DNA of 62,998 nucleotides, the filler included, from Collodictyon triciliatum (lineage: Eukaryota): assembly GCA_043381765.1 (NCBI GenBank). It is 7 parts of 7 records of this genome, joined end to end, with 100 filler letters (N's around TTAATTAATTAA, not from the genome) between each part and the next. Parts side by side here need not be neighbours in the genome. Positions count along the whole stretch, not along the records: positions 1 to 9,649 come from JBHJMP010002931.1; 6 more parts are not named here. The stretch is one strand, 5' to 3'. Shown here piece by piece: positions 96 through 52,000 of this stretch. Every line of letters starts with the position of its first letter. Positions within the stretch are counted from its first letter, which is position 1. Under the pieces are notes generated by a model that had not been told where the DNA came from, made no database searches, and saw nothing but the letters and a program-made list of their open reading frames with translations. A program made the position numbers and the translations under genes.

Positions 96-3000
96 ATCCT
101 TGGGGTGCTCTTGGGTGTATATTGCTTGCTTTTTGTCGCGGCAATTGCTCGGTATGCTTATTCACTTCTTCACAAATGCTGCACCGCAAAAGACCAGTCG
201 TCATATAGTCAAGTATTTTCATACTCTTATTTTCTCATAATTTATAGGCATCAAACTTAGAATCATATCACACAAAAAATCGAAGTTCAAAGGCAATTTT
301 CCTTTATAGGTGGCGCTTCATCATTTGGGACCTCATGCATCCGTTCTTGTGATGGCTCTCCAAGTTGTGTATCCTTTTGGTGTTATACTAGCATATCATA
401 TCAGTTTGTATTTCCTTAAAGCTATCACAAATTCGTGTGTATGATGGATTTAAAGAAAGTGTCCAGCCCTGGGATACACAAAGTACAAATTGTGTATCTG
501 TCTTATTGATTTCATATTTAACTGCGCAGTCATCAAGCAAAACATGGAAAAAGTGATAGTCCAGCTTGCAGATAGCAATTCGGACATGATTGGTCCTATT
601 TTCTTGGTTGTTTTGGATGTTTGTAAACTATCAAACCTATCTTTTTTTTTTTTTACGAATGTTAGAGTTGTATTAACCTTTTTGATATTACGCCACATTT
701 CGATCGATTTGAATCATTTTGAGAATCGAAGAGATTAAAAATAAAAGGCAAGATAAGGAAATAATACCGATAACCCACTGATTCGAAGCAATCAAAGGCT
801 GCCGTGATTATCCCTCTTTGTATGGTCCCAAAAGTTGACTCTCTGAAGCAAGTATCGTTCTTTACTATTTTGAGCGCCTTTCTGATTGTTGTTGTCGTAT
901 TTGGCAAATGCATCGCCTCTGACGAATTCAAACAACTCAAATGGTCCGAAGTCGACCAGGTTTTTTTTTTTTTTGAGATTTTATAAAATATTCATCGAAA
1001 ACACAATCGTAGTTCGTATATAATAACAAATCTTACGCAATTAACCAGATTTTTTTAATTCAGTATCAATTCAACTCCGAGTTTTTTATTGCCCTGTCAA
1101 TTATCATATTCTCCTTCAATTGTAGCAGTCAGGTAACATCATATATATATTCAATTATTAGACATATGGTAATTCAAATCGTCGATGTAGTTCTTTACAC
1201 ACACACAGTGTGATTTAAAGTAATCACAGCTTAGAGCGTCGGCAAACACATCCGATTTGCGAATACTAATGTCCACGATAGTTTATATCTATCTATGCAG
1301 AGCTAGATAAGCCGACCTCCGATGCGACTGCAGAGAAGCTAGTCGTGTTTCCTATTGTATTCTCTTTGTGTAAGCCGTTTAAACACCTTAGCTCTGTGTA
1401 GAATGACTCTCAAGTGATTCGGTTATTCTGATCGTCTTCATTACATGATTTGTTCTTCTAGTCCTGTACTGCGTCATTGGAATGTTTGGCTACTTGCAGT
1501 TCCGAGGTTTTTGCACATTCCCAATGAAATTCATATAAATGTACCAGCATTTTCACAATGAATGCCGAATCTCTTCATGTTACAATTCCTTGCTATATGA
1601 ATTATGTAAAATAATGACTATATATTTCTTCCCTAGACGATGTTACAGACAATGTCCTTGCTGCATTTCCTGACGAAAAGGATGCATTAATACGTAAGAT
1701 AGATGAAGATAATCATCATCTTTGTATTTCTCTGGAAAAGGACTTTTTTCAAAACTTTTATTCTCAGAATTTTTAATCTAGAAAAGAAAAGAAAAAAGAA
1801 AACGGCAGAATTTTATTATTGATAAGCCCAATATACTGAACCCTTATGAAGTCCTGGCTAGAGTTGCATACAGCTTCATATTGGTCTTTTCGTGCCCAAT
1901 AATTTATCAACCTCTTCGTCAATCGATTGAGAAACTGATTGTACTTTTCAAACGGGGAAATCCTATTCAATATCTGCAGGTAGTTCTTTTCGTGGAAAAC
2001 AAAGGGGAAAATTGAAACAAGAAATAATGATAGTAATGATAATAATGAATATGATAATCACAATAAATATAATCATAATAAAATAAAAATAAATTTTTTT
2101 GCCACATTGAAGTGAAAAATAACGTGGTTGAGGTAGCTGCTTTTTAAAATCTGATTTGCATAATATATTTTATTGAGTAGTTTATTTTTCATGTTCCTTG
2201 ATATACTTTAGATTTTTCTTTCTTTTTTCTTCTAGTATATGATATTGAGCGTAAAGGAGAAGAATATGGAACAAAGAGCTTATGAAAATCCTTTGAATCT
2301 CACCACATCATTCGATGAAAAATTACTTGCAAGTTAGAAAACACAAGTTCGCTCTATTTTTTGTTCATGAAAATTAATAAATAAATGAGTAATGATTATC
2401 ATAGGAGACAGCCATCAATCATTCAAACTCAACACGTGTTATGGTTGATGTATCCTTTCGATTCAAACTGGTGGAAGCAATCGCTGTCATATCAGTGGCA
2501 TGTTTGGCATCCATCTTTGCCAAAAGTCTGCGACAGGTGATTTCGTTATTTATTTATTCATTCATTTATTCATTCTTCGAGCAGAATTTCTCTTCACCTT
2601 TTCGTTCCACGTGATTCTCCCATCTTCGTCTTCATTCTTAACTCCTTTTTTTTTTTTTTTCCTTTTTTTTTTGGGAAGGGGGGATTATTATGTTTTGTGT
2701 CATGAATTATTTTAGTTCAATCTGTTTTAATCAAAGCTGGCCACCGAAGCAGAACCAATGTGATTTCATTCCCTTTTACCCAACAAGATTAAAACGAAAG
2801 CTATATTTTCTCTGTCATTTCTCAGGTTTTTGCAATTATCGGAGCGCTCGGAGCATCCACACTGTGCTATACTCTCCCTGGTCTGATGTACCTGAGAACA
2901 ATGCCGCAGGTAGAATGATATTGCAATAACATACACTCTGCTGCATCAAACGAGAAGACTCACATGGATGCAAACAAACTCACATGACCGAGTAAAACAT

Positions 3001-3344
3001 GCTGCACCTTTCAAGCAGTATAAGCATCGATATGATCCTTTTGTTATTTTTGCTGTTTTCTTTTTTGAAAATAGAGTTTATCTAAATAGGCGATGTGGTA
3101 CCATAAACTGGCGCCTGCTTCGTTGGTGGTATTTGGTGTGGTTGCGTGTGTGTCCAGCATCCTCGTGTCCATCCTCCAGTTGACTGATTTGTCTGATGAC
3201 GACAAGTTCTTTGATGCTTAAAAAAAAAAAATGATACGCAAATCATAATAATAAAATAACAACTCAAATATACAGATAACCCTATGCTCTATTTGCTTCC
3301 TCATCCTCTTTTCTCTGCGTGCAGTCGAATCAACGCCATCTAGT
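96..3344 (+). CDS. Amino-acid transporter (Aa_trans / SLC38-AVT-like), multi-exon, 5' end missing
   Basis: Spliced exons give IIPLCMVPKVDSLKQVSF, IIIFSFNCSSQ, LYCVIGMFGYLQFR and VTDNVLAAFP, with many hydrophobic segments. Stop TAG at 3342-3344. Confidence 0.85.
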
Positions 3345-3367
3345 ACTAAACGGATGGAAAAGATATT

Positions 3368-6300
3368 TTAACCACACTGAAGACAATCAACCACGGCACA
3401 ATATCCTGCACTTCCTTCGGCGTTCCTTTTAATCTTGATTTCCTTTCCTTTTTCTTTTTTTCTTCTTGTGGCTTTTCGTTTGGCGATTCTTTCGAATGGC
3501 TGTGCCTTTGGTTTCCTTTGCGCCTGCTCGTCAACGACCTCGCCTCGGTTTACCACTCCATAGACGCAGCATTTTGCCAGTCAGAAAATCCTCGCAAGTC
3601 CGTGTCGGTAAATACCCTGAAAACAGGCTTTTGCTCTTGTGCTTGCGCTTGCAACTCCTTTTCCAGTCGCTCCTTGAGTCCTATTAAAGGATAGCGGGGT
3701 GGATTAGTAACGAGTGCAGAGGAACAAAGACGCACACGAAAATGTCCGGGCATATCCTGGATTTTCGGTGTTGGGTTTTGCATTATTCTGGCAGTGTGCT
3801 TCACAGCCATGTGTTATACCGGGCAATCTCGCGAAGCCGCCTTTAAGGACGATGTAGGGGTCTTTGCATCGGGCAGTTATGTCAAATGCCTTCCTGTAGA
3901 AGTTGCCGATAAAGTCGCACAGCCCCTCCCCAAGGTTCTTGCTGCCTCGGTTGAAAAGAATCTCTGGTGTTTCCAGAGCCTCAGAGTGAACTTGGATATA
4001 ATCTGGCGTGTTGGGTGACCCGAAAATTATTGGCAGCGGTTTCGTTTTTCTTTCTTCCTCTGGATCCAACATAACTTTGCAAAGCCTGGAATGAATAAAG
4101 TTAGTTTAACATTACATATTTATTGATTTACATGTCTACTGATTGATTGATTGATTGATTGGTTGGTTGGTTGGTTGGTTGGTTGGTTGGTTGTTTGTTT
4201 GTTTGTTTGTTTGTTTGTTTGTTTGTTTGTTTGTTTGTTTGTTTGTTTGTTTGTTTGCATCAGTCGTCTATAAAGTCGATTGAATTTTTGTGGTTGCCAT
4301 GTTCAAACTGTGATTTTTGTTTCTCCTCATCATTATTTATCAGACGAGAAAGAAAAAAAAAAGAGAAAGGAATGATAATTGAAATCAAACTTTTGTTTAA
4401 TCTCGTCGGCGACAAAATACAGTTTGGATTTCGATCCAACGAGCATATTCGAAGCCTGCAGGCTGTCCAGAAGAGCATTTGTGAGCTGTTCGGAACCAAA
4501 TTGGCGGATTTCAGTGTGAGGTACTCTTCCCTCGCCTACAAAACCAGAAATCTATACACAAAATTAAACATAATAATAATAATAAAATAAAATAAAATAA
4601 ATATAAAAATAATAAAAATTATGCTTACGATAAAAATAATAAAAATAATAGTTAAAAGATTCAACAAGGCGCACATCTTCATATGGAAAGAGGTAAGCAC
4701 CAGAAGGAAATGATAGAGCACATGACTGATAAACTCCACACTAAACATACTTCAAGTGTCTTTCCCATGGAAACAAGCATTCCAGTTTTTCCATAAAGCT
4801 TTTCAGGCATGAATTCGTCCTGACATTTGAAAATAACTTGAGCAACTTTCAATCGTCTTCGGTAAAATTGTTCTAAATAATCCTTCTTTTGGGTGTACAT
4901 CGAACGGCTGCAGACGACCACCAACTATGTTGTTTGTTGAAAGGAAAGAAAATCACACATTTGTGTATAGAGGCAGTCTCATGCCAATTAACTTACGTGG
5001 AAAAAAGAAAGCATCATGCATGTATTAAAGCAGAGTTCAAATTCAATTAATTTGAGTTTACTATTTTGTCTGTTGGATCAATCTTGATGATTCTTTGAAA
5101 CATATGAGAGAAATACTCTTCCATGAGGTCATTGTCCAATGAACTGCCACCCAATTCCACGATGTACTTGTGTGAGTGCCCGAATTGAAGAACCTAGAAC
5201 ATGAATGCATGTTACTGACAATAAACAAGCATACAAACAGTGTATTCTTTTCTTTTCATTTTACATTTAAATATGAGATTCTATTAGTATAATTTCCATA
5301 TGAGACTGTTTATGCAGCGAAGGATTGCAATTATTTGAATGATAACGATAATCTTAAAAATGGAGAAAACAACGAGTGTTGCCAATAAGATTACATTTTT
5401 TAGGGCATCAAATCCGTATGCTTTGAGTCCACCTCCGAGATTGTCATTGGAGATAATAGCTGGAATAACAAAGGGATATTTGTGAATACCTCGAATTCCA
5501 CAACGGATGTTGATGTACCCCTGATCAAGGACAATGATACTATCCTCTCTACTATGAATAGTATGAGGTTGATGTTTAGACATTACATCAGGGTGAACAG
5601 GTGACAGGAAGTACAGTGCCCGCTTGTGAAAATATTAAACTTGTGTTACGATGTGGTTGCGTTAACCATTTATTCTGAACTTATGTAGGTTAGATGGAAA
5701 CAAACTTGGAATTTAGTAGGCGAGGAATACGGACTGCATCGCTGCTAAACTTTGAATTTGGGGTAATCATCTCATTAGAGAAAGGAATCTGTTAGGGAAC
5801 TGAAATTAGACTAAATAGAATATATTCATAGAATAGTGGCTGTCGAGTAGAACGTGCAGGACGCCAAAAAGTGACTCAGAACAAATAGAACATCTCCCAG
5901 AAATTGACGAGGAAAAAAATATGACCAAGGGATGTGTTGATATGATACTGAACAGTGACCTTTTTTGGCATGAATGCCTCCGGCAAAAGTTCAAAGGAAG
6001 TTGATCTCAAATCTGTCGGTATAATTCATTGAATGAATGAATGCAATTTCGTGTTACCGGAGAAAATAATCATCACCTCTCCAGCTGGGGGAGTTCAATG
6101 CATATGATTTTCAGTGAGTTCAACATTATAGAAACAAAAACAAAAAAGCTATACAATTGTCTAATTCGGCGCTGATTCCAACAAAACCCGAAGTTAATCG
6201 AGTGAGATGAACGGCTTGGATAGCACCCTGGATTTTTCGGACCCAGCTTTCAAAGCTGGCTTTGTCATAGGCCATTAACTGATAAACCTGAATAATCACC

Positions 6301-9300
6301 ATGGTAAATGGAAGCCTTATCAAAATACCATGAGAAAATAAAAGAAATAGGAGACTCTTTTGAAAACGAAAAAGAAAAAAGGGAGATACATCCGTTGAGA
6401 AATCTTTTCGTTTCGAATTACCTTTTTATTGGAGTTGATTGTGAATTGGAGTGACTCATTGGAATCTTCACCTTGAAATATTCCGCATAGGGAAACTCTT
6501 TCGTTGCATATTTGATTCATGTTCTGTGATGCGAAATAAGTACAATTCTTTTTCCTCAAGGAGATTGCCACCACAAAGAGGGAATGTAGAGTATTTTACA
6601 CAACATACTTTTAAGCTTAGTGGCGAAGAAAAACTAACTGTGTGATTATTGAAGAATCGGATAAAGTCCTTGCTCAATGTAACCCAATACGGTTTATCTT
6701 TACTCAATCCAGAGCGAGAATTTTTTGATATCAAATATCCTTCGTGCAAGACTTCTTGTTGAATCGATGGCTGCGTAGATTTTGTTTGAGTGGTAGAAAA
6801 GATTGATGAGTAACTTTCAAATGAGAAAATTTTATGATGAATCAAAATCTAGGATAGATAATGACCAGTGGTGTCTTGCAATCATAGTTTTATTTTTTCC
6901 GTTTGTCTTCAATCATGATCATATTGAACTCAACACCTGAAAAGAATTTTTTTTTCTAGAATGAATAGAGTAGTTACCTTTTTCTTGTGAGATTCTAATT
7001 CCCAAGCAAAGTCTTCCGCACATGTTTCAGAATCGAATGAGTAGGATATTGCCTTTCGGTTGTAAATAAAGGACACCCTGGTGCCTGAGGCAGATGAATT
7101 GGTAATTTTTCGAATGTCAAAGATGAGAAGAGGAGTTGCATTTGAATTATCCTAATGTTTTATTGCAGTAAAAAAAAAAAATCAATAATCAATGAGTGCT
7201 GATTTTCCAATAAATTTTAATTTTTTTGCGAGACTGGACGACATATATAGTAGTATATTATAGAACAGAGAAATGGAAATAGATGATAATATATCGCTAA
7301 ATTGAACAACCGTTTCCTTGAAAACCAAGATTTGGGCTTCTTGCATTATAATCGTGTAAACAATCGAAACTATGTATGAATCGGACTTGACTCTCCATTT
7401 TAACTTTTCCATAGAGTCCTTTACAACACATAATCGTGGAAAATTATTCATCGCCATTCTATCTTATTCAATAAGCACAAGAAAAAAATAGGGCTTGGTA
7501 GTTATAAATTATTCAAAAGATGGAGCACTATATTACACCGTGGTTATGGGTTATATGACCATACCACGGATTTAGAACTGGCATTTTTGATGACTTCGGT
7601 CCAGTAATCAATATCCTCCTTGATTCCTCCAATGGAAATAATCAACTTATCCCTTTTGTAAACGACTGCTGAGAAGAATCCTGAAATACTGTTCTCAATT
7701 TTCAAATCTGCACCTCGAATATCGATAACGTGGGCACTTGTCTGAGAATAGTATTAAAATATGTTGAGATGATTAAAATAAGACAGCTTTGTTGAAGTGA
7801 TAGTCGATTAAACGTGAATTCAAGTACCCAATCTTGTGATATATAGATGGATAAGATTCAAAATGAATCCAATTGAACAGATGAAAGTGACATATAAATC
7901 GAAGGTGTGAAATATTGCGTTTTACAGAATCTTTACATAGGAAGAATATGTGATGACAAAACCTCGTTGTTGTAAATGCTCAGAAAAGCACCAGCCAGGA
8001 CACACCAATTCCATGTATAAAGCTTCTGTGAGGGCAATCTTGTCAAGACAAATGCTTGCCGGCGCTCAGATGTGTTTGGAATTTTCTTTAGTGAGTTTCC
8101 ACACAGTTTTTTTTTTTCATTTTGGTTGGAGAAGGTTCGCGTCGTAGGAAAGTATATATAAAAATTTGTTAACTAAAGTTCTCATGTACGAAATATCTAA
8201 AATTTTGGATGTTGTTTAATACATGAATTCGTATTAGTGATGCTGGTGTATGAAACATGTATTTAATGGCTTACTAGACAAGAGTAGAGAATATTACGAG
8301 AGAAAAAACAAAGGTTGTTCATTTCTTCGATCGCCAATTTGATGGCTGTGCTATCCTCCACAACCAAGTCAATAATAATTGAAGGGTAAAATAACTTAAC
8401 CAACAAGCCACCGTTTACATGTGAAGGTTCAGAAAACATTACTCGGGCAGAGTCAAAATATTTTGGTAGTTTGGAAATGTCGGTAGTTTTTTCACCCTTC
8501 AGATTTTAAAAAATAATAATAGGAAATTAATTAAAAATAAGACTTTATGGTCACAGTCGGTTAATTGTTGGTATTGTTCAATAGAGCAATTACCGAAGCT
8601 GTATAATCCATGTGGATTCCCCAACTCGAGGCCTGTAATTTACAGTCTACTTTTTGCATATTTATGCTGATAATGCGGCAAGAAACTAGACTTTGCTGTG
8701 GATTCAGGCTACTAACTCTATCGTTGGGTTGGGGAACTACAGATGAAATAAGATATGAGAAACCTTCAAAGAGATGTATTCAAAACTTACTGTCGCAACA
8801 AATCAAAAGGAAGCATACCTTCGTAGTTTAGTTTAAAAAACTCGGTTCTATTGGAACTACTTGGATTTTGAGAGGCGTTTGTCTCGGTAGCTGGTCGAAC
8901 AAGACTCGTGGTGGAAGCAGATTGAGAAATAATTGACGTCGACCGTAATCTCTGGAGCAGAACGAATAATTAGCAAGTTTTATGTTTGATGAAATTTTAA
9001 CATTTCTTTAAATAAATAAACGGGTTATCCACCTCTGCAGAAGGCTTAGCAAGAGCATCTCCCAACTGCGCATTGCGCTCTTGTAATTCGTTTATTTGTT
9101 TCAGCAAGGTACTAATTTTTCCCTCCATTTCTTCTTTACACTTCTCTAATTTGCCGGGTTCAACAAGCTGCGATTTGAGGGTACGATTTTCGTTCGAGAT
9201 GCTATCAATTTTTGCTTTCAGCTGCTCGATCTCTTGTCTCAGTGCTGGTGATTCTTCCTGAGCTTTTGCTACATCGGCAGTATTAGCAGCCGGCATGTTA

Positions 9301-9382
9301 GCTGTCGCAGTAATGGCATGGTTGACTGCATGTGTGGGGCCTGGGTCTCGTCCAGTACTCAGTCTCTGGCGGATTCTCCATT
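3368..9382 (-). CDS. Coiled-coil + about three PH-like domains + C-terminal divergent actin-fold domain, 5' end missing
   Basis: Actin-like exons: IIVLDQGYINIRCG...FVIPAII, TGMLVSMG, GEGRVPH..FGSEQLT, DEIKQKLC, ETPEILF, IVLKGGFARLPG, LKERLEKEL. PH-like exons: HEGYLISKN..YWVTL, FESWVRKI, WNWCVLAGAFLSIY, IDYWTEVI. Coiled-coil exon at about 9030-9382. The PH-to-actin splice is inferred. Confidence 0.7.
4140..4257. repeat. Compound tetranucleotide microsatellite (GATT, then GGTT, then GTTT), intronic
   Basis: Direct reading of the sequence. Confidence 0.95.
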
Positions 9383-9467
9383 CTGGATAAGACCCATTTC
9401 AGTACATATTTTTAAGGAGGATTAGGAATACATTTCCTTACATTTTTAACATTTAACTTTTTAACTT

Positions 9468-9580
9468 TTATACATCTTTTATACATCTTTTATACATCTT
9501 TTATACATCTTTTATACATCTTTTATACATCTTTTATACATCTTTTATACATCTTTTATACATCTTTTATACATCGTTTA
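9468..9580. repeat. (ATACATCTTTT)n minisatellite
   Basis: 11-nt tandem unit near the scaffold end. Confidence 0.95.
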
Positions 9581-9649
9581 TAACAAGTCATTGTGGCGAT
9601 ATTTTAAATACTCAATGATCTATCAACTGAGAAGACTTTGACCTATATC

Positions 9650-9749: not shown

Positions 9750-10033
9750 ATTCTTTTATTCTTTTATTCTTTTATTCTTTTATTCTTTTATTCTTTTATT
9801 CTTTTATTCTTTTATTCTTTTATTCTTTTATTCTTTTATTCTTTTATTCTTTTGTTCTTTTATTCTTTTATTCTTTTATTCTTTTATTCTTTTATTCTTT
9901 TATTCTTTTATTCTTTCATTCTTTCATTCTTTCATTCTTTCATTCTTTCATTCCTTCATTCTTTCATTCTTTCATTCTTTCATTCTTTCATTCTTTCATT
10001 CTTTCATTCTTTCATTCTTTCATTCTTTCATTC
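9750..10033. repeat. (TTTTATTC)n grading into (TTTCATTC)n
   Basis: 8-nt tandem units. The first unit also occurs at 1-49. Confidence 0.95.
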
Positions 10034-10850
10034 TCTTTTATCGTCGATCGCAACACAAAAAATAAGCAGCAAAACTCCAGGGGAAAGAGCACCCACCACG
10101 GATATTGTCATGCTCGATCATACTCTGAAAGGTTGCCGGACCGGCCTCCTTCTTCTCCAGCGGCTCGTCCGTCCCAAGGATCGCTTTGCAGCGGAGGCAA
10201 ATCATTGCCAAACACCAAAGTGAAAGCTATCGGGAATAAATATTAATAAAAAAAAAAAAAAGTGGATCCTTGGCGCGGAAGAGTTGGGAGTGGTTGTCGG
10301 ACTTTGCTTCTAGATCGCGAGTCCAAAGACAATAGAGCTAATCATCTCGGAAACCTTGTTTCGTCACACCTTCAAACATTCTATGTGAATGCATATATAA
10401 ATTTGTATTTTTTAATGTATTAATTGATACACAATAAGTAATTAGATGCACAATTTAGTATTTTAATATACAAATGTGTAATTTCCATAAATATACATAT
10501 TCATTGAAGACCACATGGAGGCTTCTTTTTTCCACACGAAAACCACCGCTCTGCGTTGCTTGGGCGCGATCTGGCCGTGGTTGTCGAACAGGCGATGCGG
10601 AGAAGAAGCGCCAGCAAAGGAGCCACAGAGCCAACCAGTGGGATGGGCTGCGCATACTCGTTTGGTTGCTTGCTTGTCAACTCGATTTTGTGATGTTTTT
10701 CTAATCTTATTTTGTTTTTCTTTTGTTTTTCTTTTGTTTTTCTTTTGTTTTTCTTTTGTTTTTCTTTTGTTTTTCTTTGCAGCTGTCTCATTTGCGCACA
10801 CAGACTTGACTTTTTCACTTGCTCAACACAGCAGGCAAAAGTCCTCCAAG

Positions 10851-19768: not shown

Positions 19769-21899
19769 ATGTGGTTGCGGTCGCAGGTATTGAGGTCGCA
19801 TTCCCTGACTCAGTTGGCAAATACGTTTCACCGGTTTTCATCCACCGCAACATCCATTTTGGCTATTGAGTCATCTTGTGATGATTCGTGTGTTGCCCGC
19901 ATGACACTTGTACCACCATTCAACTTTACACACCAAAGTGCCGGGCAGATGGATGCACATGCTCCGTATGGTGGTGTTGTCCCGCCGATAGCCGCAAGAG
20001 CTCACATGGCGAACATTCCCAATCTTCTAGAGGCAGTGGACAGTAATTGTACCACTTCAGATGTGCAACTGAAAGGTACATTCTGACTCCCAAATTATTA
20101 TAACTTTCATTCGTACGCTTCCTCTTTTATATTCCCTTCCTGCGACGTTCCTTTATTTTTAATTTATTTTTGGTTTGTTTAATCATCCTTTTGAAACATG
20201 TAATTTGACAAAAAAATGAATTGAAAAAAGCATCACATGCAAAGATGTTGCTGTGGCTGTGACTGTGGGCCCTGGCCTATCTCCTTGTCTTCGCGTTGGC
20301 GTCGCCAATGCGCACCGATATGCTCACAGAAAGAACATACCGATTATTCCCGTCCACCATATCGAGGCACACATGCTTGTTGCTCGCCATCCACAAGTAT
20401 CACTTATCACACCAGCCTTTCCGTTCTTAGCACTCGTTCTCACAGGAGGACATACCCAGTTGGTTCTTGTTCAAGATGTTGGCAAGTATCGTCTCTTAGG
20501 TGAAACACTGGACGATGCAATTGGTGAAGCGTTTGATAAGGTGGCTAGAATACTGGGTCTCTCCCACCCAACCGCTTATGGTGCCGCGCTGGAGTTCGAA
20601 GCATCAAAGTATACACATACACAGTTGTTGCAAGGTCATGAGTCATCAGATAAGCACACACTGATTCAGTTTCCAGTGCCGATGAGACATTTGAAAAATT
20701 GTGATTTCTCCTTCGCTGGGTTGAAAACAGCAGTTCGGTATCAGATAAACTCTATATTGAAAAAAAGCTGTGTGGATAGGTTACCAGAGCAGTATGTCCC
20801 AGAAATTGCACATGCATTTCAAGTAGTTACGCAATTCTTTTTTTTTTTTTTTTTTAAAAAAAAACAAACTATTTCGCAATAGTATCTCCTCAGCCTGTTG
20901 AGAATATTTTCTATATTTTTTGATTTCTTTGATTAAAAGTGTGACTCAAAAGTCGTAGGCGCTATACCTTTTAATTATACCTTACTTCTTACAATCCATC
21001 TTGTGGTACAAAATTAAGCCCCCGAAGACTGTACTTTTTTTCTCGTTCCATTCCTAAAGTTTTGTACCCTAGAAAACTGTAACAACTCACCTTATTGAGA
21101 GAACGCGAAGAGCGATTGAATGGTCCAAAAAACTAGAGCCATCTATCAAGCACGTCGTAAGAAAGATATGTACATAGAATATAGAGTACATTTATGTATT
21201 TGAACACTTTCTTCCGCATAAATTTGTTTTAGATTGGTCTCAATTCACAATCACTTACCTGCCCATCTCCTTCTAGGTTGTATGCGGGGGAGTTGCCTCC
21301 AACAAATACATCCGTGGTCAGCTTGTAAATACCTTCGCGCAGTTGGAGGTGGATGCGGTTTTTCCAGATCCGAAATTTTGTACGGATAACGCACTTATGA
21401 TTGCCTGGGCTGCATATGAAAAAATCATCCACCACCAGCGACAGAGTTCATCTACATCGTTCCCGAAGTCATTAGGGGAGGCAACTAAGGACCTAGCTAT
21501 TCCCAACGTTTTCAAAAACGATAGCGGTACTTCTTCCCATTAAACTATAGGATGATGTGGTGCTGGATATACAAGTTCACGTCCAAGATAGCCGTTTTTG
21601 AAGACTGTTATCCTGTCGTCAGCTTTGGGTGGGTACGCTTTTACTCAAGCGTGATTTATTTCATAGAGTCCATCGACGAATCTTCCTTAAGAAAACTGGT
21701 TCAGGTCACCGCAAGGTGGCCTCTCTCTGAATCGATGAGCGAAGAAGAGGCGAAGGAGCTGAATCGCAAAGAGCCTGTAGATGAAACTCCTAAAACCACC
21801 CTTACCCCAACCCCAGCCGCCTTGCCTTCCTCTTCTGAGGACAAACTACGCCTGCTTGATAGATTCAAGGATTTGATAAAAAACATCCTCTTTCAGTAG
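19769..21899 (+). CDS. OSGEPL1: Mitochondrial tRNA N6-adenosine threonylcarbamoyltransferase (Qri7/TsaD type)
   Basis: Arg/Ser-rich presequence; ILAIESSCDDS, YGGVVP, VTVGPGL, HHIEAH, LTGGHTQL, GETLDDAIGEAFDKVAR, FSFAGLKT, GGVASN, CTDNALMIAW. Confidence 0.95.
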
Positions 21900-32906: not shown

Positions 32907-35742
32907 ATGATGAACAAGTATACAGGATTGGCTATCATCGTAACAGGTTAGCAATACAAACGGCATCATATAGCATTGTTTCCATTATATATCGTGTTGC
33001 AATATGATGACCTATGACATCAGCATTCATGAAGCAAATTTTCAAACTGTAGCATTGGTACTTGAGAGCCAAGTAATCAATGTCAAAGGACAAGATGATT
33101 TCGTGACTCGAACACTAGTTGGCCCTGGTTCTGTGTGCAGCGTTGCTGTCACTCCTGATGGTTCGAAAATTGTCTCTGGAGGTGGAGATTATTATATTCC
33201 AGATTGGACAGTAAAAATATGGAATCTTTCTGACGGTTCTTTGATTCGCACCCTGACTGGTCATACTGGTTCTGTGTGCAGCGTTGCTCTCACTCCTGAC
33301 GGTTCACAAGTTGTTTCTGGAAGCTATGATAGAACAATCAAAATCTGGAATCTTTCTAATGGAGCTTTGATTCGTACACTGATTGGTCATACTTATTCGG
33401 TTTACAGCGTTGCTGTTACTCCTGATGGCTCAAAAATTGTGTCTGGAGGTTATGATCAAACAATCAAAATCTGGAATCTTTCTGATGGAGCCTTGATTCG
33501 CGTATTGATTGGACATCGTTGGTATGTTTACAGTGTTGCTCTCACTCCTGATGGCTCAAAAATTGTTTCTGGAAGCAGGGATAATACAATCAAAGTTTGG
33601 AATCTTTCTGATGGAGCCTTGATTCGCACATTGACTGGTCATACTAGCAGTGTTGAAAGTGTTGCTGTTACTCCTGATGGCTCAAAAATTGTTTCTGGAA
33701 GCAGTGATTGGACAGTCAAAGTTTGGAATCTTTCTGATGGAACTTTAATTCGCACATTGACTGGTCATACTGATGATGTTTACAGCGTTGGTGTTACTCC
33801 TGATAGCTCAAAAATTGTTTCTGGAAGCAGTGATTGGACAGTCAAAGTTTGGAATCTTTCTGATGGAACTTTAATTCGCACATTGACTGGTCATACTGGT
33901 AATGTTTACAGCATTGGTGTTACTCCTGATAGCTCAAAAATTGTTTCTGGAAGTGATGATAATACAATCAAAATTTGGAATCTTTCTGATGGAACTTTAA
34001 TTCGCACATTGACTGGTCATANNNNNNNNNNNNNNNNNNNNNNNNNNNNNNNNNNNNNNNNNNNNNNNNNNNNNNNNNNNNNNNNNNNNNNNNNNNNNNN
34101 NNNNNNNNNNNNNNNNNNNNNNNNNNNNNNNNNNNNNNNNNNNNNNNNNNNNNNNNNNNNNNNNNNNNNNNNNNNNNNNNNNNNNNNNNNNNNNNNNNNN
34201 NNNNNNNNNNNNNNNNNNNNNNNNNNNNNNNNNNNNNNNNNNNNNNNNNNNNNNNNNNNNNNNNNNNNNNNNNNNNNNNNNNNNNNNNNNNNNNNNNNNN
34301 NNNNNNNNNNNNNNNNNNNNNNNNNNNNNNNNNNNNNNNNNNNNNNNNNNNNNNNNNNNNNNNNNNNNNNNNNNNNNNNNNNNNNNNNNNNNNNNNNNNN
34401 NNNNNNNNNNNNNNNNNNNNNNNNNNNNNNNNNNNNNNNNNNNNNNNNNNNNNNNNNNNNNNNNNNNNNNNNNNNNNNNNNNNNNNNNNNNNNNNNNNNN
34501 NNNNNNNNNNNNNNNNNNNNNNNNNNNNNNNNNNNNNNNNNNNNNNNNNNNNNNNNNNNNNNNNNNNNNNNNNNNNNNNNNNNNNNNNNNNNNNNNNNNN
34601 NNNNNNNNNNNNNNNNNNNNNNNNNNNNNNNNNNNCAGTCTCAGTCTCAGTCTCAGTCTCAGTCTCAGTCTCAGTCTCAGTCTCAATCCCAATCCCCAAC
34701 ACAAGGTCTGCTTCACTTTATATCATGTTAAATTTTACGTATTATTACATACATGAAAGATTGACGCCGAATTTTTGCTTCTATTTGCACTTAGAATTAC
34801 ATGACCCCCTATTTTTTTTCTAGATGGCGAACATTTCATCGATTTTCATATTGACCGCATCTCTGATTCCTATCAAGTCGACCAAGTTATTTTTACAGAT
34901 GAATTGGTATGGTTTATGCTCTCGAAGCAGGATATGTTCCACTTGATTCTCTCAAACGCAGGCGAGGCTCTTGTTGGGCATAGCCCATACCATTAAGACA
35001 AAAGGTGTTCATCAACTCAAATCTTTTTAGGCTGAGGGACTCAACATAACACGGGTTCAGCTTCGTCCCTTCTACCCCGTAACCTTCGATGGCTACATCT
35101 CCCTATCAATAGCCGTACTTGAAAATGTCGGCTCGCCTGAATCCAGCATGGAAATTGTAGACAAGATATTAAACGCTGCAAGAAAGGGAAGCAAGGTACT
35201 ATGTAAATGTGCACTCTCAAACCTTCTTGTTTCTCCTGTTTTGCCGATTTTTGGCTCTTGTAAAACACATTGAACTCTGTCACACTTGCTTGCACTTATC
35301 GACGACTACCTATATGTGTGCATGTTATAGTTGAATCATTTACAGTATTTCGAACAACTATAGAAATATTATCTGCCCTTTAATCATGTGATGTATCGAA
35401 TAGGTGCTCACCGATCTTAAAGTTATGACCGTCGTTTATGAAGAAGATGTTATTGTTGTGGAGGAGAAAGTAAGTGATAATCTGTTCTGTTACGACTCAC
35501 GCAATTCAATTAGACACTGACACGACTCATAATTTCATATCCAGTCATCAGAGCGCAATCTCGACATCTATATCGGCATTGCTGTTGCAGGAGGCGTTTT
35601 GTTTCTGATAATCTGTGTTGCGCTGGTGAAGATGCGCCATAGAGCGAAGTATCTTTGCAACAAACTGTTCCACTACAAAAATATCCACGCGATGAAATCC
35701 AGCGGTGTCCAGCTTGAGTCTATCAATAGAGACACACTATAA
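32907..35742 (+). CDS. Putative type-I membrane protein: signal peptide, at least 7 near-identical WD40 repeats, (QS)n stalk, juxtamembrane domain, TM helix, short tail; spans an N gap
   Basis: Exon 1 (32907-32946) spliced to 33053 gives MMNKYTGLAIIVTALVLESQVINVKG-QDD. 42-aa repeats LIRTLTGH..V.SVAVTPDGSKIVSG..D.TIKIWNLSDG. After the gap, QSQS..PTQ splices in phase to DGEHFIDF.., then IYIGIAVAGGVLFLIICVALV-KMRHR and stop at 35740-35742. Confidence 0.72.
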
Positions 35743-43331: not shown

Positions 43332-44730
43332 TAAACAAAATAAACAAAATAAAAAATAGTCCGGTTGGAAAAAAAAAAGTTATTTACTGCCGCACACCCA
43401 TTTGTGTTGAAAATTTTACTTTGGAGCTCTCCTCGTACGAAAAGTAACCCTAGCGAATACCCCTTCCAACGCATTACATAAGGGAATCAAATAGATGAAG
43501 AAACTCTGCGAGCCTTCGGGAAGCTGGTCTTTTAATCGAATGTATATGCATAGTAGATGGAGGCCTCACTTCTTAGCAACCGGTGGTCACGGGGTTGAAC
43601 TGAGCTGGATTACGCAGCACCCGCAACTGCACCCTTAAAGCAAATCCACAAAAGGTCATGTTCGTGAATTCAGCCGCTTTCTCCGAACGTGAAATGGGTC
43701 TCCAGGTCTCGATCCGGTGAATTATAAAAATCTCGGAAAANNNNNNNNNNNNNNNNNNNNNNNNNNNNNNNNNNNNNNNNNNNNNNNNNNNNNNNNNNNN
43801 NNNNNNNNNNNNNNNNNNNNNNNNNNNNNNNNNNNNNNNNNNNNNNNNNNNNNNNNNNNNNNNNNNNNNNNNNNNNNNNNNNNNNNNNNNNNNNNNNNNN
43901 NNNNNNNNNNNNNNNNNNNNNNNNNNNNNNNNNNNNNNNNNNNNNNNNNNNNNNNNNNNNNNNNNNNNNNNNNNNNNNNNNNNNNNNNNNNNNNNNNNNN
44001 NNNNNNNNNNNNNNNNNNNNNNNNNNNNNNNNNNNNNNNNNNNNNNNNNNNNNNNNNNNNNNNNNNNNNNNNNNNNNNNNNNNNNNNNNNNNNNNNNNNN
44101 NNNNNNNNNNNNNNNNNNNNNNNNNNNNNNNNNNNNNNNNNNNNNNNNNNNNNNNNNNNNNNNNNNNNNNNNNNNNNNNNNNNNNNNNNNNNNNNNNNNN
44201 NNNNNNNNNNNNNNNNNNNNNNNNNNNNNNNNNNNNNNNNNNNNNNNNNNNNNNNNNNNNNNNNNNNNNNNNNNNNNNNNNNNNNNNNNNNNNNNNNNNN
44301 NNNNNNNNNNNNNNNNNNNNNNNNNNNNNNNNNNNNNNNNNNNNNNNNNNNNNNNNNNNNNNNNNNNNNNNNNNNNNNNNNNNNNNNNNNNNNNNNNNNN
44401 NNNNNNNNNNNNNNNNNNNNNNNNNNNNNNNNNNNNNNNNNNNNNNNNNNNNNNNNNNNNNNNNNNNNNNNNNNNNNNNNNNNNNNNNNNNNNNNNNNNN
44501 NNNNNNNNNNNNNNNNNNNNNNNNNNNNNNNNNNNNNNNNNNNNNNNNNNNNNNNNNNNNNNNNNNNNNNNNNNNNNNNNNNNNNNNNNNNNNNNNNNNN
44601 NNNNNNNNNNNNNAGTCTGCGAACTCGTTGAACCAATGCAAGCTGCTCAGCTGGATTTAAAATTGAATAAAACATTACTACCAAATAATTATGTGCGTTT
44701 GTTTTTAAATACTAATATAAATATTAAAGT

Positions 44731-45252
44731 ATGCCGGAAATTCCAGAAAATATTAAAAAAGAATTGCCCAAAGATTTCGATGAAGTTTGGGAGGTTGTTG
44801 AAATCGGAGACATTCAAAAGAATGATTATATTTCCTATTTCCCCAAGCCCCGCAAATATCAATCGCGTGACTCTGAAACAAAGCCCCAGCTAGTGAAAGG
44901 CGGATATGTTACATTCACCCCAGACGAAGAGAAAAAAGAAATTCGCGGCACAAAAGAAAATGTAATTGGTTTGCGCAGTTTCAAATCAAAGTGGTCTATT
45001 AGCGAATCAGATGTTTATTTCTTTTGCAAGTCAAAGAAAGACTCGAAAGAGATTTTGAAAAAAGGAATTGCGAAAGCCAATGAGACAAAGACCGAGGTAC
45101 GCAAACGCAAGGCCGAAATACTCAAGGACGAAATCAAGGAGGCGGAAAAGATGAGCGTCAATAAAGAGGCCATTGAGGAGGCTGTAAAGGCCGCCGCTGA
45201 GACTGATTCTCCAATTAAAAAAAAAAGAGGCAGACCAAAGAAGAAGGTCTAA
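44731..45252 (+). CDS. Hypothetical Lys/Glu-rich protein with a C-terminal AT-hook (element ORF)
   Basis: Intact 173-aa ORF ending KKKRGRPKKKV. Its stop overlaps the integrase stop at 45249-45252. Confidence 0.8.
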   Translation: MPEIPENIKKELPKDFDEVWEVVEIGDIQKNDYISYFPKPRKYQSRDSETKPQLVKGGYVTFTPDEEKKEIRGTKENVIGLRSFKSKWSISESDVYFFCKSKKDSKEILKKGIAKANETKTEVRKRKAEILKDEIKEAEKMSVNKEAIEEAVKAAAETDSPIKKKRGRPKKKV

Positions 45253-46439
45253 GTTTTATTTCTTCTGGCAGCGCGTTCTGCGCGAGAAGTAGCTTGAGCT
45301 GTCTTTGTCGCCTCATTGAACTTGAATAAATCTTTCTCCTCTAAACCAGAGGCCCCTTTCATTTTTCGAGGCTTTGCTTCTTTTAAAAATTCATCCAAGT
45401 CGTCTTGCTCTTCAAATTCTTTGACGAGTTGTTTTTTGGGTTTATGTGTTTTGCCTTTGGTGACTGTGTCGTCGATCAGAAGCAAGTCAGAGCGCTTGAA
45501 ATTTGTCTTTGCGATTTTCGCATTGGTTGATTCGACTTTGACATAAGGCACAGCCCATTCGCTGGTTGGTTTGCTTTCTTTGATGACTGTATATATTTCA
45601 TTACTCCAACGGGGCAAGTACCCCTTTGAAGTTTTCAGTTTTTGTTTTATATTCACAGGCAGGTCAGTCTTCTCAAGAAGTATTCTGACTTTGTCTCCAG
45701 GTTGGAATGGTTTGTCCTTGCCGGCATTCTGATTCTTTTTGCCTGCATATTTTTTTTGGTTCTCGATAATTTGCTCCTGGTACTTTGGCAAAACCGCAAC
45801 ATCAGGCACAACCTTTGTTGTTTCATTTTTGACAAGATTAATAGAGTCTGTGAATTCTCTGAGATGGGGGATTGGGTCGTCGCCAGTCTTTTGCAGATAG
45901 CCGTAGAGTGCGCGCTTGATTGTGCCATTGGCTCTTTCGACAAAGGCATTGGTCGTGGGATTACCTGGAGAACTTTTCACGCTTTTAATATTATTACTTT
46001 CTAAAAGTTTTGGAACTTCACCTTCAAATTCTTTTCCATTGTCTGACTGAATGGTCGTGACCAATTTATATTCTTTAATAAACTTTTCTAATTGCTGGGA
46101 TACTTCTTTGCTGGAATTTGCCTTCAGTGGATAGGCCCACAGCTTTCGCGTGAATACATCAACACAAGTCAGAATATATTTCGCGTCTTCTGATTCCAGG
46201 TTTCCTACATCAATCGTGTCTATCTGAATGTACCCTGGTTTGAATCGCATCATGGTTGCTTGTTTGCGTTCTGACTTTCTCGCTTGGAGAGTTTGGTAGT
46301 CTGGTTGCTGTTTGAGAAATTCTTCGACAGTCTTTTTTTTAATTCCAAATTCTTTGACCAGCGCCCAAAGTCCGGCAACTGAATTTGTGTGCTTGGGTGC
46401 ATTATAATACTTTTCCAATATTTTCATTTCGTCAGTCAT
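45249..46439 (-). CDS. Retroviral-like (rve) DDE integrase, Polinton/Maverick c-integrase type
   Basis: QIDTID, YILTCVDVFTR, IQSDNGKEF and AFVERANGTIK (D,D-35-E); C-terminal FQPGDKVRI..KGYLPRWSNEIYTV; no chromodomain visible. Confidence 0.93.
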   Translation of the reverse strand: MTDEMKILEKYYNAPKHTNSVAGLWALVKEFGIKKKTVEEFLKQQPDYQTLQARKSERKQATMMRFKPGYIQIDTIDVGNLESEDAKYILTCVDVFTRKLWAYPLKANSSKEVSQQLEKFIKEYKLVTTIQSDNGKEFEGEVPKLLESNNIKSVKSSPGNPTTNAFVERANGTIKRALYGYLQKTGDDPIPHLREFTDSINLVKNETTKVVPDVAVLPKYQEQIIENQKKYAGKKNQNAGKDKPFQPGDKVRILLEKTDLPVNIKQKLKTSKGYLPRWSNEIYTVIKESKPTSEWAVPYVKVESTNAKIAKTNFKRSDLLLIDDTVTKGKTHKPKKQLVKEFEEQDDLDEFLKEAKPRKMKGASGLEEKDLFKFNEATKTAQATSRAERAARRNKT

Positions 46440-46476
46440 AATTTAATTTATAAAATATTATTTATTTAAAAACGCG

Positions 46477-46720: not shown

Positions 46721-47179
46721 TTATTTTGGTATGCGGCGGCAGACTGAACACTTTGAATGTTTAGGTTCGCATTCTTGATTGCATTTATCACAAAGTCCTT
46801 TTCGACATTTATTGCATCTATTGACTATTCGATTCAAATGCGGCTCGTGGCATATGTCGCAGTTGCGGCCGCTGGCACATCTGTCTGGCAAAAATTGTTT
46901 TTTACAACAGCTACCCAATGTTATAATTTTTTTGCCGTCGGTAATCCAATGATTGTATTTAATCCAGTGTGTGCACACACATTCAGATGTAGGAGGGGGC
47001 AGTTCAAGGTGTAAGAACATCTCTGGATTTGATTTGATACATAGAATGTGATACGATAATCCATCACTGGCATCATCTCCACCAATGTACCACCAACCAT
47101 TTAAGTCTGCTGGTACCATTTTATATTTGCTGTAAAGTCCATCGATAAAATTTTTGTGCAATTCGTAATCAGCTTCCAT
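46721..47179 (-). CDS. Cys-rich putative Zn-binding protein, large-DNA-virus-like (element ORF)
   Basis: CVCTHWIKY...LGSCCKKQF motif plus four CxxC pairs; intact 152-aa intronless ORF. Confidence 0.8.
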   Translation of the reverse strand: MEADYELHKNFIDGLYSKYKMVPADLNGWWYIGGDDASDGLSYHILCIKSNPEMFLHLELPPPTSECVCTHWIKYNHWITDGKKIITLGSCCKKQFLPDRCASGRNCDICHEPHLNRIVNRCNKCRKGLCDKCNQECEPKHSKCSVCRRIPK

Positions 47180-47228
47180 TATGAAAAAACTATTTCGACA
47201 ACTTTAAATTTAAAATCAATTTTTGTTT

Positions 47229-49074: not shown

Positions 49075-52000
49075 GAAATCAAAGTACCCGCTTCAAAGTG
49101 CAATTTCAGCACCACAATCGATGGTGATGGTTACAATGACAACACGATGATGGCATCCTTGGACGAAGCCAATCTCCTTCAAAACCTCCGACACAGACTC
49201 CAACACGGAAAAATATACGTAATAAATTTCTCTTTCAATTCGCTAATGCAAATATGGTAATAATAATTCCTCTTCACCTCAAATCCAGCTGTGATTTAAC
49301 TTCCAGCTTAACGCTTACAAAACCTCCTTAAATACCACACGAAGCTAACATATTCAAATACAAAAACATAAAGCTTAAGTCAGTAATGTCCGAACACTTA
49401 TGAACAATGATTTGATATTCCTTTCATGCGTAATGTGCCGTCATATCCCGTCGTTTCGCACCTTTTTAACTCTCATTCAGCTTATCACAACTGTTTACGC
49501 GAATCAATTACAACATATCCAGACTTACACGGGATACATCCTTTTGGCGATCAATCCATTTCAGTCTATTACAAACACGTATGGCCCTGAGGTGATTGAA
49601 ATGTATCGCGGCAAGCCCATGGGTCAACTTCCTCCTCATATATACGCCGTAGCCGATCGCGCATATCGCTCTATGAAGTGTGGTATGTTAAACGGAATTA
49701 TACTATTCTATTACACGAACATTCCATTTTTCCTCGAAAGATAAGAGTCTTACGGTCCTTTTTTTTTTCCGCCATATAACCTGATTCACCTATACAGAGA
49801 GAAAAAGTCAATCAGTACTGATTAGTGGAGAAAGTGGGGCAGGGAAAACAGAAAGCAGCAAGTTTCTCATACAATATCTTGTTACTGTCGGAGGTCATGC
49901 AACCACAACAAATCTTGAAAACCGCATCATATCAAGGTGATTAAAATCAATTCGAATATATGTAATTTACTTATGAATTCCGCGATTCACATAAAGCATG
50001 AGTCATTTGCATAGTCTCATTTTCCATTATGATTTCGACTCTGATATTGAACGAAACCACCACGACTAGTGCTTATCAACACATGTAATCCATTCCAAAT
50101 TCTTTTCACTTAACAAGTATACTTTTTTCTCCTCAAAATCGGCATAGTAATCGAATATTGGAGTCCTTTGGTAACGCCCGCACGGTGCACAACAACAATT
50201 CATCTCGTTTTGTAATTTTAACACTCCACCAATTCGTCATAACTTTGGGCCTTTAAATAGTCGCAATTTAAATTATACTCTTTGCAATGGTTAATTTAAA
50301 ATGAAGCAATAACAATGCTTTGTCATTAAAATCATGTCAATTGGCCATCCCATTAATTTAATACCTTTTTTTTTAAAAAAAATATTAGGGAAAATTTATT
50401 CAAATCCATTTCAACGACGCCTTCCGTGTTTCGAAGGCTGCCGTTGTCACATGTAAGTGCACATTCCAACCTGTATCCTTGGCTATCGCTGTATTTTTTT
50501 CGATATTATCGTGGCTCTATGAATCGAAAAAAGGAAAAAAATTGTGACCAAACTCTATTAAACTAACTCCCCAAATTTCCAAATAAAATCATATGTCATC
50601 GCTTACAAAATAAGATTTGCTGGAAAAGGTACTCACTACTGTTAATAAAACACGCACATGTTCATTATTTAAACAGAAATTTAGTTAATTGAAGGTAAAC
50701 ATATAAAATTCTTTTTATTCTAATGGGTGTCGCTTCTGTATTAGTCTCGAGTTGTCTGGCAAGCAGATAAAGAGCGTAATTTTCACATATTTTATCAGCT
50801 TTGCGCCGGTGCACCCACAGAGCTGAAAGGTTTCTTCATATCTCTCAACCTCCTATTTTTTTTTAAAAAAATTTAGGAACAAAAATTTAAAAGACATAGT
50901 CAAGACTTACACCTCAATCCCCTCTCACAATTATGGATGGTGTAAACTGGCATATTATAGCGAGATTTATATGCTGTATTTGACATGTCCTTTTTTATTT
51001 TTAATTCTGAAAGCCTACTCTCATGTTTCAAAAAAAAATGAATAGCGGATCTGAAATTGAATGAGCAATCTGAATTTCGGTACTTAACCACGGGAAATCC
51101 TACCAAAAAAGACTCTGATGCTGATTCAGAACGATTTACTGAGCTCCAGGCAATCATTTATTACTGCTTGCATATTCATTTTACTCTATGTTACGATTTT
51201 TAATATACTTTTTGCTCTACTTTATCATATTTAGGCTGCCTTGGAAATATTCGGAATGAATACTGAACAGCAAAAGCAAATATTCCGCATTTTGGCTGGG
51301 ATTCTACATCTTGGTAATGTCACTTTTGCAGACAATCGAGAGGGTCATGCAGAAATGACGGAGATGCAATGTGAGAATTTATTTTTTGAATGAACTTACT
51401 CAGGTTTTATGATTAAACATCTGGGTCTTTGTTTTATGAAAATGAACAATGCTCATGCACAGCCGTTTATTTGTTCTCACAAAACCACAACCTCAACCTT
51501 TTCCTGATAGCAATAGAGAACGCGGCTGTTCTTCTAGGAATTCGTGCAGAGTTTTTGATACAAAATCTGTTAACCAGGAAGATGGAATCATCCTCAAGGA
51601 AACGCTCTCTGATTGAAATCCAATTATCTGCCGAACAGGTCAGCGTCAATATGACACTCATACAATGTCAATCAAATAATTCACAATCTACGATATATAC
51701 GAATCCTGAAAAAGATACAATTAGTATTTGCCATTTCATGGATTGACTAAAATAATTTGCGCATTCGAATACGTTAGGCCCATTCCTCGAGGGACACGAT
51801 GGCAAAGACAATCTATGGAAGATTATTCGATTGGATTGTTCAGAAAATAAACACATCGCTCAGTAACTCTTCAGCTCAGTCAGTGTCATTTATCGGTATT
51901 TTGGATATATTTGGCTTCGAAAATAATGAGGTATATTAATTCGTTGGCAGAAATCTCGCATCTAACAAGAATTTCTCGATAGATAGAGATCTATAATGTA

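Follow-up and report, generated by a model that had tools for sequence, protein, structure and literature searches.

To our knowledge, proteins with the actin fold, the known classes of actin-related proteins (Arps) among them, are almost never fused to other domains, and the roles of the few fusions known in nature, such as filactin, are unclear. Yeast Num1 is a cortical tether for a cytoskeletal machine, and combines an N-terminal coiled coil with PH-type membrane targeting. Here we describe a locus of the protist Collodictyon triciliatum (GenBank assembly GCA_043381765.1) that appears to bring elements of both kinds together in one polypeptide. It lies in a stretch of 62,998 nucleotides, filler included, made of seven parts of seven records joined end to end (hereafter, the window). 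The region belongs to a eukaryotic nuclear genome, and all exons of the gene are on the minus strand. The initial annotation had proposed a run of same-strand exons encoding one protein with a coiled coil, about three PH-like domains and a divergent actin fold; positions 9296-3550 indeed form a single 955-codon frame. At the level of complementary DNA (cDNA), we can say with good confidence that the coiled coil, the PH-like modules and the actin-family domain are one gene and not two.

Four (X1-X4) of the six sequencing runs found were compared with the locus. X1 and X2 come from one study and are labeled 'RNA?', X3 is a freshwater metatranscriptome and X4 an aquatic metatranscriptome. A spliced contig of 2516 nucleotides in X1 (record 2) spans positions 4021 to 9276, and 14 of the 15 joints listed (of 20 in all) correspond to minus-strand GT..AG introns. 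The joints that link the PH-like and actin parts (6012>6155, 5788>5960 and 5551>5706) are each present in both X1 and X2, two of the four runs, while four joints of the 5' half were recovered independently in X3 and one joint in X4. Bin depths in X1 and X2 equal the contig depth multiplied by the exonic share, the introns being without cover; in particular, neither run covers 6013-6154 or 5552-5705. The loose contig ends at 4021, 4050, 4829 and 6233 match the SMART template-switch oligo in reverse complement, as a check against the oligo table of PMC8579666 confirmed. Because the depth is intron-free, the joints are canonical and the ends carry this oligo, the X1 and X2 contigs represent cDNA.

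One X2 cDNA has its template-switch 5' end at 6233, inside exon 11 (PH-like module 4), and continues through two mini-exons (exons 12 and 13) into the actin part. With such a starting point, at least one of the assembled cDNAs joins the PH-like and actin parts. The reading frame agrees with the observed splicing: the actin part stays in frame only with the chain of exons 11-12-13-14, and retention of intron 6013-6154, or skipping of exon 12, exon 13 or both, leads to stops or to the wrong frame.

The complete model has one open frame of 955 codons on the minus strand, from the ATG at 9296-9294 to the TAA at 3552-3550, with 19 exons and 18 GT..AG introns. Fourteen introns were taken from the listed joints, all of them with GT..AG ends after six joints had been shifted by 1-2 ambiguous bases. 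The other four (8737-8818, 8497-8593, 6771-6977 and 4552-4750) are not among the listed joints and were placed by three criteria: exon sums that agree with the coordinates of X1 record 2 and X2 record 6, GT..AG ends and an open frame. A stop codon in frame at 9399-9401 lies upstream of the ATG at 9296. The features are as follows.

9297..9461, minus strand: 5' untranslated region (UTR), extending at least this far (X1 record 3 on 9272-9461, X2 record 9 on 9033-9382)
9033..9296, minus strand: exon 1, start codon and predicted coiled coil, residues 1-88 (joint 8951>9033 in X1, X2 and X3)
8819..8951, minus strand: exon 2, Ser/Thr-rich linker, residues 89-132 (upper border from joint 8951>9033, lower border inferred)
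8736-8594 and 8496-8275, minus strand: exons 3-4, putative PH-like module 1, residues 133-254 (PH-likeness by pattern only)
8085-7963 and 7741-7565, minus strand: exons 5-6, putative PH-like module 2, residues 255-354 (joints 7741>7963 and 7417>7564)
7418-7311 and 7151-6978, minus strand: exons 7-8, putative PH-like module 3, residues 355-448 (joint 7150>7310; intron 6771-6977 inferred)
6770-6639, 6523-6422 and 6287-6155, minus strand: exons 9-11, putative PH-like module 4, residues 449-570 (joints 6523>6639 and 6285>6420 in X1 and X3)
5960..6012, minus strand: exon 12, 53-nucleotide linker mini-exon (joints 6012>6155 and 5788>5960 in X1 and X2)
5706..5788, minus strand: exon 13, 83-nucleotide linker mini-exon (joints 5788>5960 and 5551>5706 in X1 and X2)
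5552..5705, minus strand: intron holding the ATG at 5583 (joint 5551>5706, GT..AG ends; depth of bin 5420-5654 equals exon-only cover)
5551-5395, 5193-5062 and 4924-4751, minus strand: exons 14-16, start of the predicted actin-family domain, from residue 616 (joints 5191>5393 and 4924>5062)
4551-4391, 4085-3820 and 3680-3553, minus strand: exons 17-19, end of the predicted actin-family domain, to residue 955 (joints 4084>4390 and 3679>3819)
3550..3552, minus strand: stop codon TAA (X1, X2 and X4 contigs without an indel here)
3222..3549, minus strand: 3' UTR (X1 record 1 unbroken over 3088-3679)

Module 1 is covered by X1 record 2 on 8275-8495, with joint 8085>8275 in X1, X3 and X4, and intron 4552-4750 was placed by contig arithmetic. 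Instead of a single intron, the 603 bases between 6155 and 5551 contain the two mini-exons, which together encode a 45-residue linker. This changes the junction proposed at first, in which an actin-start exon was open upstream of its Met and used an AAG acceptor. Because joint 5551>5706 defines intron 5552-5705, both the ATG at 5583 and the open sequence before it fall within an intron, and the actin-start exon in fact uses the AG at 5553-5552 as its acceptor. The 3' limit drawn at 3368 has to be moved as well, to the TAA at 3552-3550: the contigs carry no indel here and the downstream frame adds no actin score. The fusion itself, as one protein, is upheld by the spliced cDNA contigs, the unbroken frame and the actin profile described below. 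The case named beforehand as refuting it, a PH gene that ends near the ATG at 5583, corresponds to no transcript seen, and the bin depths match exon-only cover.

The intronic ATG at 5583 has a frame that is nevertheless open into exon 14; X1 and X2 have no cover there. A stand-alone actin-like isoform could arise from an internal promoter near this ATG (5552-5634). The introns of the actin part contain microsatellites at 4143-4257 and 4565-4650 (a TTGT-type unit in 28.8 copies, and AT-rich arrays with periods of 6 and 9 nucleotides). Upstream of the furthest cDNA cover (9461), tandem repeats occupy 9465-9582 and 9750-10034, with runs of N between (an 11-nucleotide unit in 10.7 copies and an 8-nucleotide unit in 35.6 copies). 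At the other end, a plus-strand gene converges on this one and its 3' end overlaps the 3' UTR; the two are merged in X1 record 1. The convergent gene (2692-3221) has a GT..AG intron at 2910-3089 (joint 2907>3088 in X1 record 1) and ends at 3221 with a hydrophobic C-terminus resembling a membrane span; its region 2642-2926 has no Pfam match.

For the actin part (residues 616-955), a profile was built from the actin open reading frames (ORFs) at 14 giant-virus loci (11 full length and three partial), which were fetched via a back-translated conserved motif; such actins are described in PMC8850707. The profile scored 30.7 bits against the spliced protein (E 7.9e-12 for one target), with profile positions 71-345 of 380 colinear with residues 675-947 and an envelope of 613-953. 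As controls, 200 shuffles together with the reversed sequence reached at most 6.0 bits, and 120 TsaD-family proteins at most 11.1 bits; TsaD also belongs to the wider group of proteins with the actin-like ATPase fold. A MAFFT alignment with the 11 full-length giant-virus actins gave 23.2-26.4% identity over 320-328 columns, and 57 of the 199 columns with at least 90% conservation among actins are kept in the fusion protein. The giant-virus actins are 62-70% identical to animal and fungal actins. Sequence searches of the PDB with exons 14, 16, 18, 6, 8 and 4 returned an actin-type match for exon 18 only, which aligns end to end with Arp2 residues 221-309 at an E-value of only ~1; consensus-TPR matches of the same exon were rejected as repeat artefacts. 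The last ~340 residues very probably belong to the actin family, as judged by profile and alignment, and the divergent actin fold expected at the 3' third of the gene is thereby confirmed.

The nucleotide-binding motifs of this domain are unevenly conserved. The first phosphate loop, D-x-G-S-G-x-x-K-x-G-F-x-G in the 14 references, keeps the Asp, the first Gly, the basic residue and the two later Gly, and its Ser-Gly pair is replaced by Tyr-Ile. In the second, D-S-G-D-G-V-x-H has become S-M-G-K-T-L-E-I with only the central Gly retained, between conserved flanks (T-G before and P-H after). Counted together, the replacements affect five phosphate-loop positions and a His close by. Exon 18 has both the G-G and the P-G of the adenosine loop (S-G-G-x-T-M-x-P-G); also retained are the IQA-motif Gln and the Trp close to the end. 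The frame stops eight residues past this conserved Trp, and the ~28-30 C-terminal residues of actin, which belong to subdomain 1, have no counterpart. The frame beyond the stop (to 3368) was considered as the missing C-terminus and rejected, with an unchanged score of 30.7 bits, no indel in the cDNA and high divergence. In actin, the changed loop positions include residues that bind the phosphates of the nucleotide and the catalytic water. Since these phosphate-loop residues are replaced, we infer weak or absent ATPase activity, and the domain probably cannot hydrolyze ATP as actin does.

The coiled coil proposed upstream is supported by two analyses. Exon 1 matched 106 Pfam families at E ≤ 1, all of coiled-coil types and all below their curated cut-offs (best 6.6e-06), and a heptad scan found two stretches (residues ~9-44 and 45-84) with up to seven of eight (88%) a/d positions hydrophobic. 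Residues ~9-85 are thus predicted to form a coiled coil, and Ser, Thr and Asn are abundant in residues 89-140. The following ~430 residues (133-565) can be read as four units of 94-122 residues, and not about three as proposed initially. Modules 2, 3 and 4 (exons 6, 8 and 11) close with an amphipathic helix bearing a Trp, and the helix of module 1 lacks the Trp; modules 2 and 4 open with the usual hydrophobic/basic strand pattern of PH domains, all of this as read from the sequence. A closing amphipathic helix with Trp is a hallmark of PH domains (PMC4746654). By this pattern, the middle modules probably have a PH-like fold; the profile searches given below lent their PH identity no support at exon level.

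The X1 and X2 pieces are 90% to >99% alike to the window, and their source is a close relative. Forty differences are listed, with 14 further ones beyond them. The coding region holds 22 of those listed (at most 36 in 2865 coding bases), of which 12 are synonymous, 10 nonsynonymous and none creates a stop. The ratio of nonsynonymous to synonymous differences per site (pN/pS, Nei-Gojobori site counts) is ~0.23 for residues 1-615 and likewise for residues 616-955, and both halves appear to be under purifying selection. The four listed indels are all outside the coding region, and the coding part of X1 and X2 contains neither a stop nor an indel. Past the stop (3368-3549), 10 of the 182 bases differ in X1, which also has a 3-nucleotide insertion, as expected for an untranslated region. 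A difference at position 3554 makes the last codon Leu in X1 and X2 vs Trp in the window, with the same stop.

A number of points weigh against a fusion gene of this architecture. The linking joints come only from two runs of the same study, and the fusion therefore has cDNA-level support from one study; X1 and X2 may not be independent of each other, because their contig depths are near-equal (12.7 and 12.6) and their differences identical. The linking exons are not covered in X3 and X4, which are therefore uninformative either way. Contigs, moreover, cannot prove every molecule to be full length, and rare forms are dropped in assembly. Pfam's own actin model matched none of the six actin-part exons, which were searched as single exons of 42-88 residues. 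For the middle part, Pfam searches of 18 ORFs and 15 exact exons gave no PH profile match, a weak test with modules split over two or three exons, and exons 4, 6 and 8 had no PH chain or related match in the PDB. The four modules are not significantly alike (best pairwise BLASTP E 0.026; MAFFT), and no clear basic phosphoinositide motif was seen by eye in their first strands. Against 1.84 billion representative sequences, a HMMER search with exon 18 gave four matches and no relative.

The four HMMER matches were attributed to chance, none of them carrying an actin domain. A word search with exon 18 among longer proteins scored none of 21 candidates, and searches of metagenome contigs of the Joint Genome Institute (JGI) with exons 18 and 4 gave 178 and 513 pattern matches, respectively, none of which was confirmed. 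A TsaD/Qri7 exon elsewhere in the window (20220-20879, plus strand) has a best database match of only 54% identity, named for a green alga. Given that even this conserved exon reaches only 54%, the lineage is barely represented in the databases and the absence of relatives is weak evidence. None of the best 120 of 606 long proteins with a conventional-type actin domain lists PF00169, and a PH-actin architecture was not found in the literature searched. In the searches made, the predicted combination of a coiled coil, PH-like modules and a shortened actin-type domain has not turned up elsewhere.

The negative results for the middle part, together with a hydrophobic-moment scan that was uninformative, leave some room for an alternative that is unlikely overall: the middle 430 residues may adopt another beta-rich or a novel fold that is not PH-like. 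The PDB searches with three of its exons gave no related match. The module lengths of 94-122 residues, the Trp-bearing helix at the end of three of the four modules and the strand pattern of modules 2 and 4 argue in the opposite direction. A different fold in this place would change the proposed targeting and not the fusion.

The fusion itself is questioned by the idea of two genes: one, of coiled-coil/PH-like type, would end at a TAA near 6126, and the other, actin-like, would begin at the ATG at 5583. The contig would then be a product of read-through, a conjoined transcript or a merge in assembly by way of shared exons, and would have no function as a fusion protein. Retention of intron 6013-6154 does end the frame after nine more codons, the ATG at 5583 is in frame with exon 14, and exon 13 also has an in-frame Met. 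The contigs of the actin part are deeper (32-44) than the upstream ones (12.7), and a contig that spans two genes does not by itself show a single transcript. Nevertheless, the three linking joints all have GT..AG ends on the strand of the gene, and the actin frame survives only with the chain of exons observed, an outcome that chance alone would give in an estimated few percent of cases. The lack of cover on 6013-6154 and 5552-5705 in X1 and X2 does not fit two transcripts bounded there, nor does the X2 template-switch contig that begins in PH-like module 4 and reaches the actin part. The higher 3' depth fits 3'-biased SMART cDNA combined with the overlap of the convergent gene. Two separate genes are, on this evidence, improbable.

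A single-gene fusion that works as a tether or adaptor is the best explanation overall, held somewhat short of an even chance. As to the mechanism itself, the sequence tentatively suggests a tether or adaptor and not a polymerizing actin, and our confidence in this part is slightly lower again. The coiled coil would pair two chains, and the PH-like array would anchor the dimer, either on a membrane or on a partner protein. There, the actin-like domain would bind actin filaments, their ends or actin-binding proteins, and would not itself be a polymerizing subunit. By analogy with the Arp2/3 complex, the protein might instead be a membrane-anchored filament seed or end-cap. Its coiled coil would keep two actin-like domains next to each other, in the way Arp2 and Arp3 are arranged in the complex, and its PH-like array would bring the pair to a membrane. 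We consider this doubtful; if true, it would be a nucleator or capper built from the actin fold in a single polypeptide, which has not been described so far.

An equally doubtful role is that of a nuclear or chromatin protein, in which the tandem PH-like modules would bind histones or peptides after the manner of tandem-PH histone chaperones and the actin-like domain would act as the nuclear Arps do, without polymerizing. The changed phosphate loops and the ~24% identity to actin are compatible with it, for divergent non-polymerizing Arps such as the nuclear Arps of remodeling complexes have such changed loops, and so is the lack of a clear lipid-binding motif by eye. On the other side, no nuclear localization signal or chromatin-type domain was read in the protein, no chromatin-family profile matched, and the proposal is pure analogy. 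Finally, a polymerizing variant of the filactin type, whose C-terminal actin-type domain likewise stands behind a long N-terminal extension, is very improbable with 23-26% identity, a replaced second phosphate loop and the last 28-30 residues gone.

Should the predicted architecture hold, the fusion protein would be a further case of reuse of the actin fold as a binding module, and would offer a tractable way to test whether an actin-like domain can work as a cap or seed when tethered. Because the link depends on mini-exons of 53 and 83 nucleotides, a gene of this kind would be broken up or overlooked by automatic gene calling.

Other genes in the window include a Miro-type EF_assoc_2 exon, a protein kinase, TsaD/Qri7, WD40, an rve integrase, arrestin-N, myosin and FKBP. 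A frame of 397 residues at 45252-46442 (minus strand) contains an rve integrase core (E 3e-13), is flanked by long frames at 44728-45249 (plus strand) and 46724-47203 (minus strand), and is probably a mobile element. In the myosin gene (49379-56113, plus strand), exons at 49379-49741 and 52581-52880 encode head sequence; downstream lie an IQ motif and ~300 residues of Glu/Arg/Ile/Gln repeats that are almost perfect. The WD40 gene (32974-34731, plus strand) consists of highly regular, near-identical 42-residue repeats broken by a long run of N.

Among described proteins, filactin of Dictyostelium discoideum resembles the C. triciliatum fusion in having a C-terminal actin-type domain after a long N-terminal extension, with a mass of ~100 kDa (PMC2441452, PMC5225641). 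Its actin domain is near conventional actin and joins actin rods, whereas the corresponding domain of the fusion is ~24% identical to actin. The fusion further differs in its altered phosphate loops, its cut-short C-terminus and an extension that would consist of a coiled coil and PH-like modules.

The canonical Arps (Arp1-Arp11) and the orphan protist Arps share with the fusion an identity to actin of 20-30% and the retention of core motifs, and the paper on the Tetrahymena tArp contains no occurrence of PH or coiled-coil terms. Arp2 chains are the best real PDB neighbors of exon 18, at E ~1, and give the sole hint of a class. Drosophila Arp53D likewise has a divergent actin fold with an N-terminal extension that directs localization. 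Its extension is a short unstructured tail, in contrast to the ~615 residues with folded-looking modules of the fusion, whose host is a protist. Cortical anchors that combine a coiled coil with a PH domain, such as yeast Num1, have a single C-terminal PH domain and no actin-fold domain, and the likeness of the fusion to them would lie in the working principle only.

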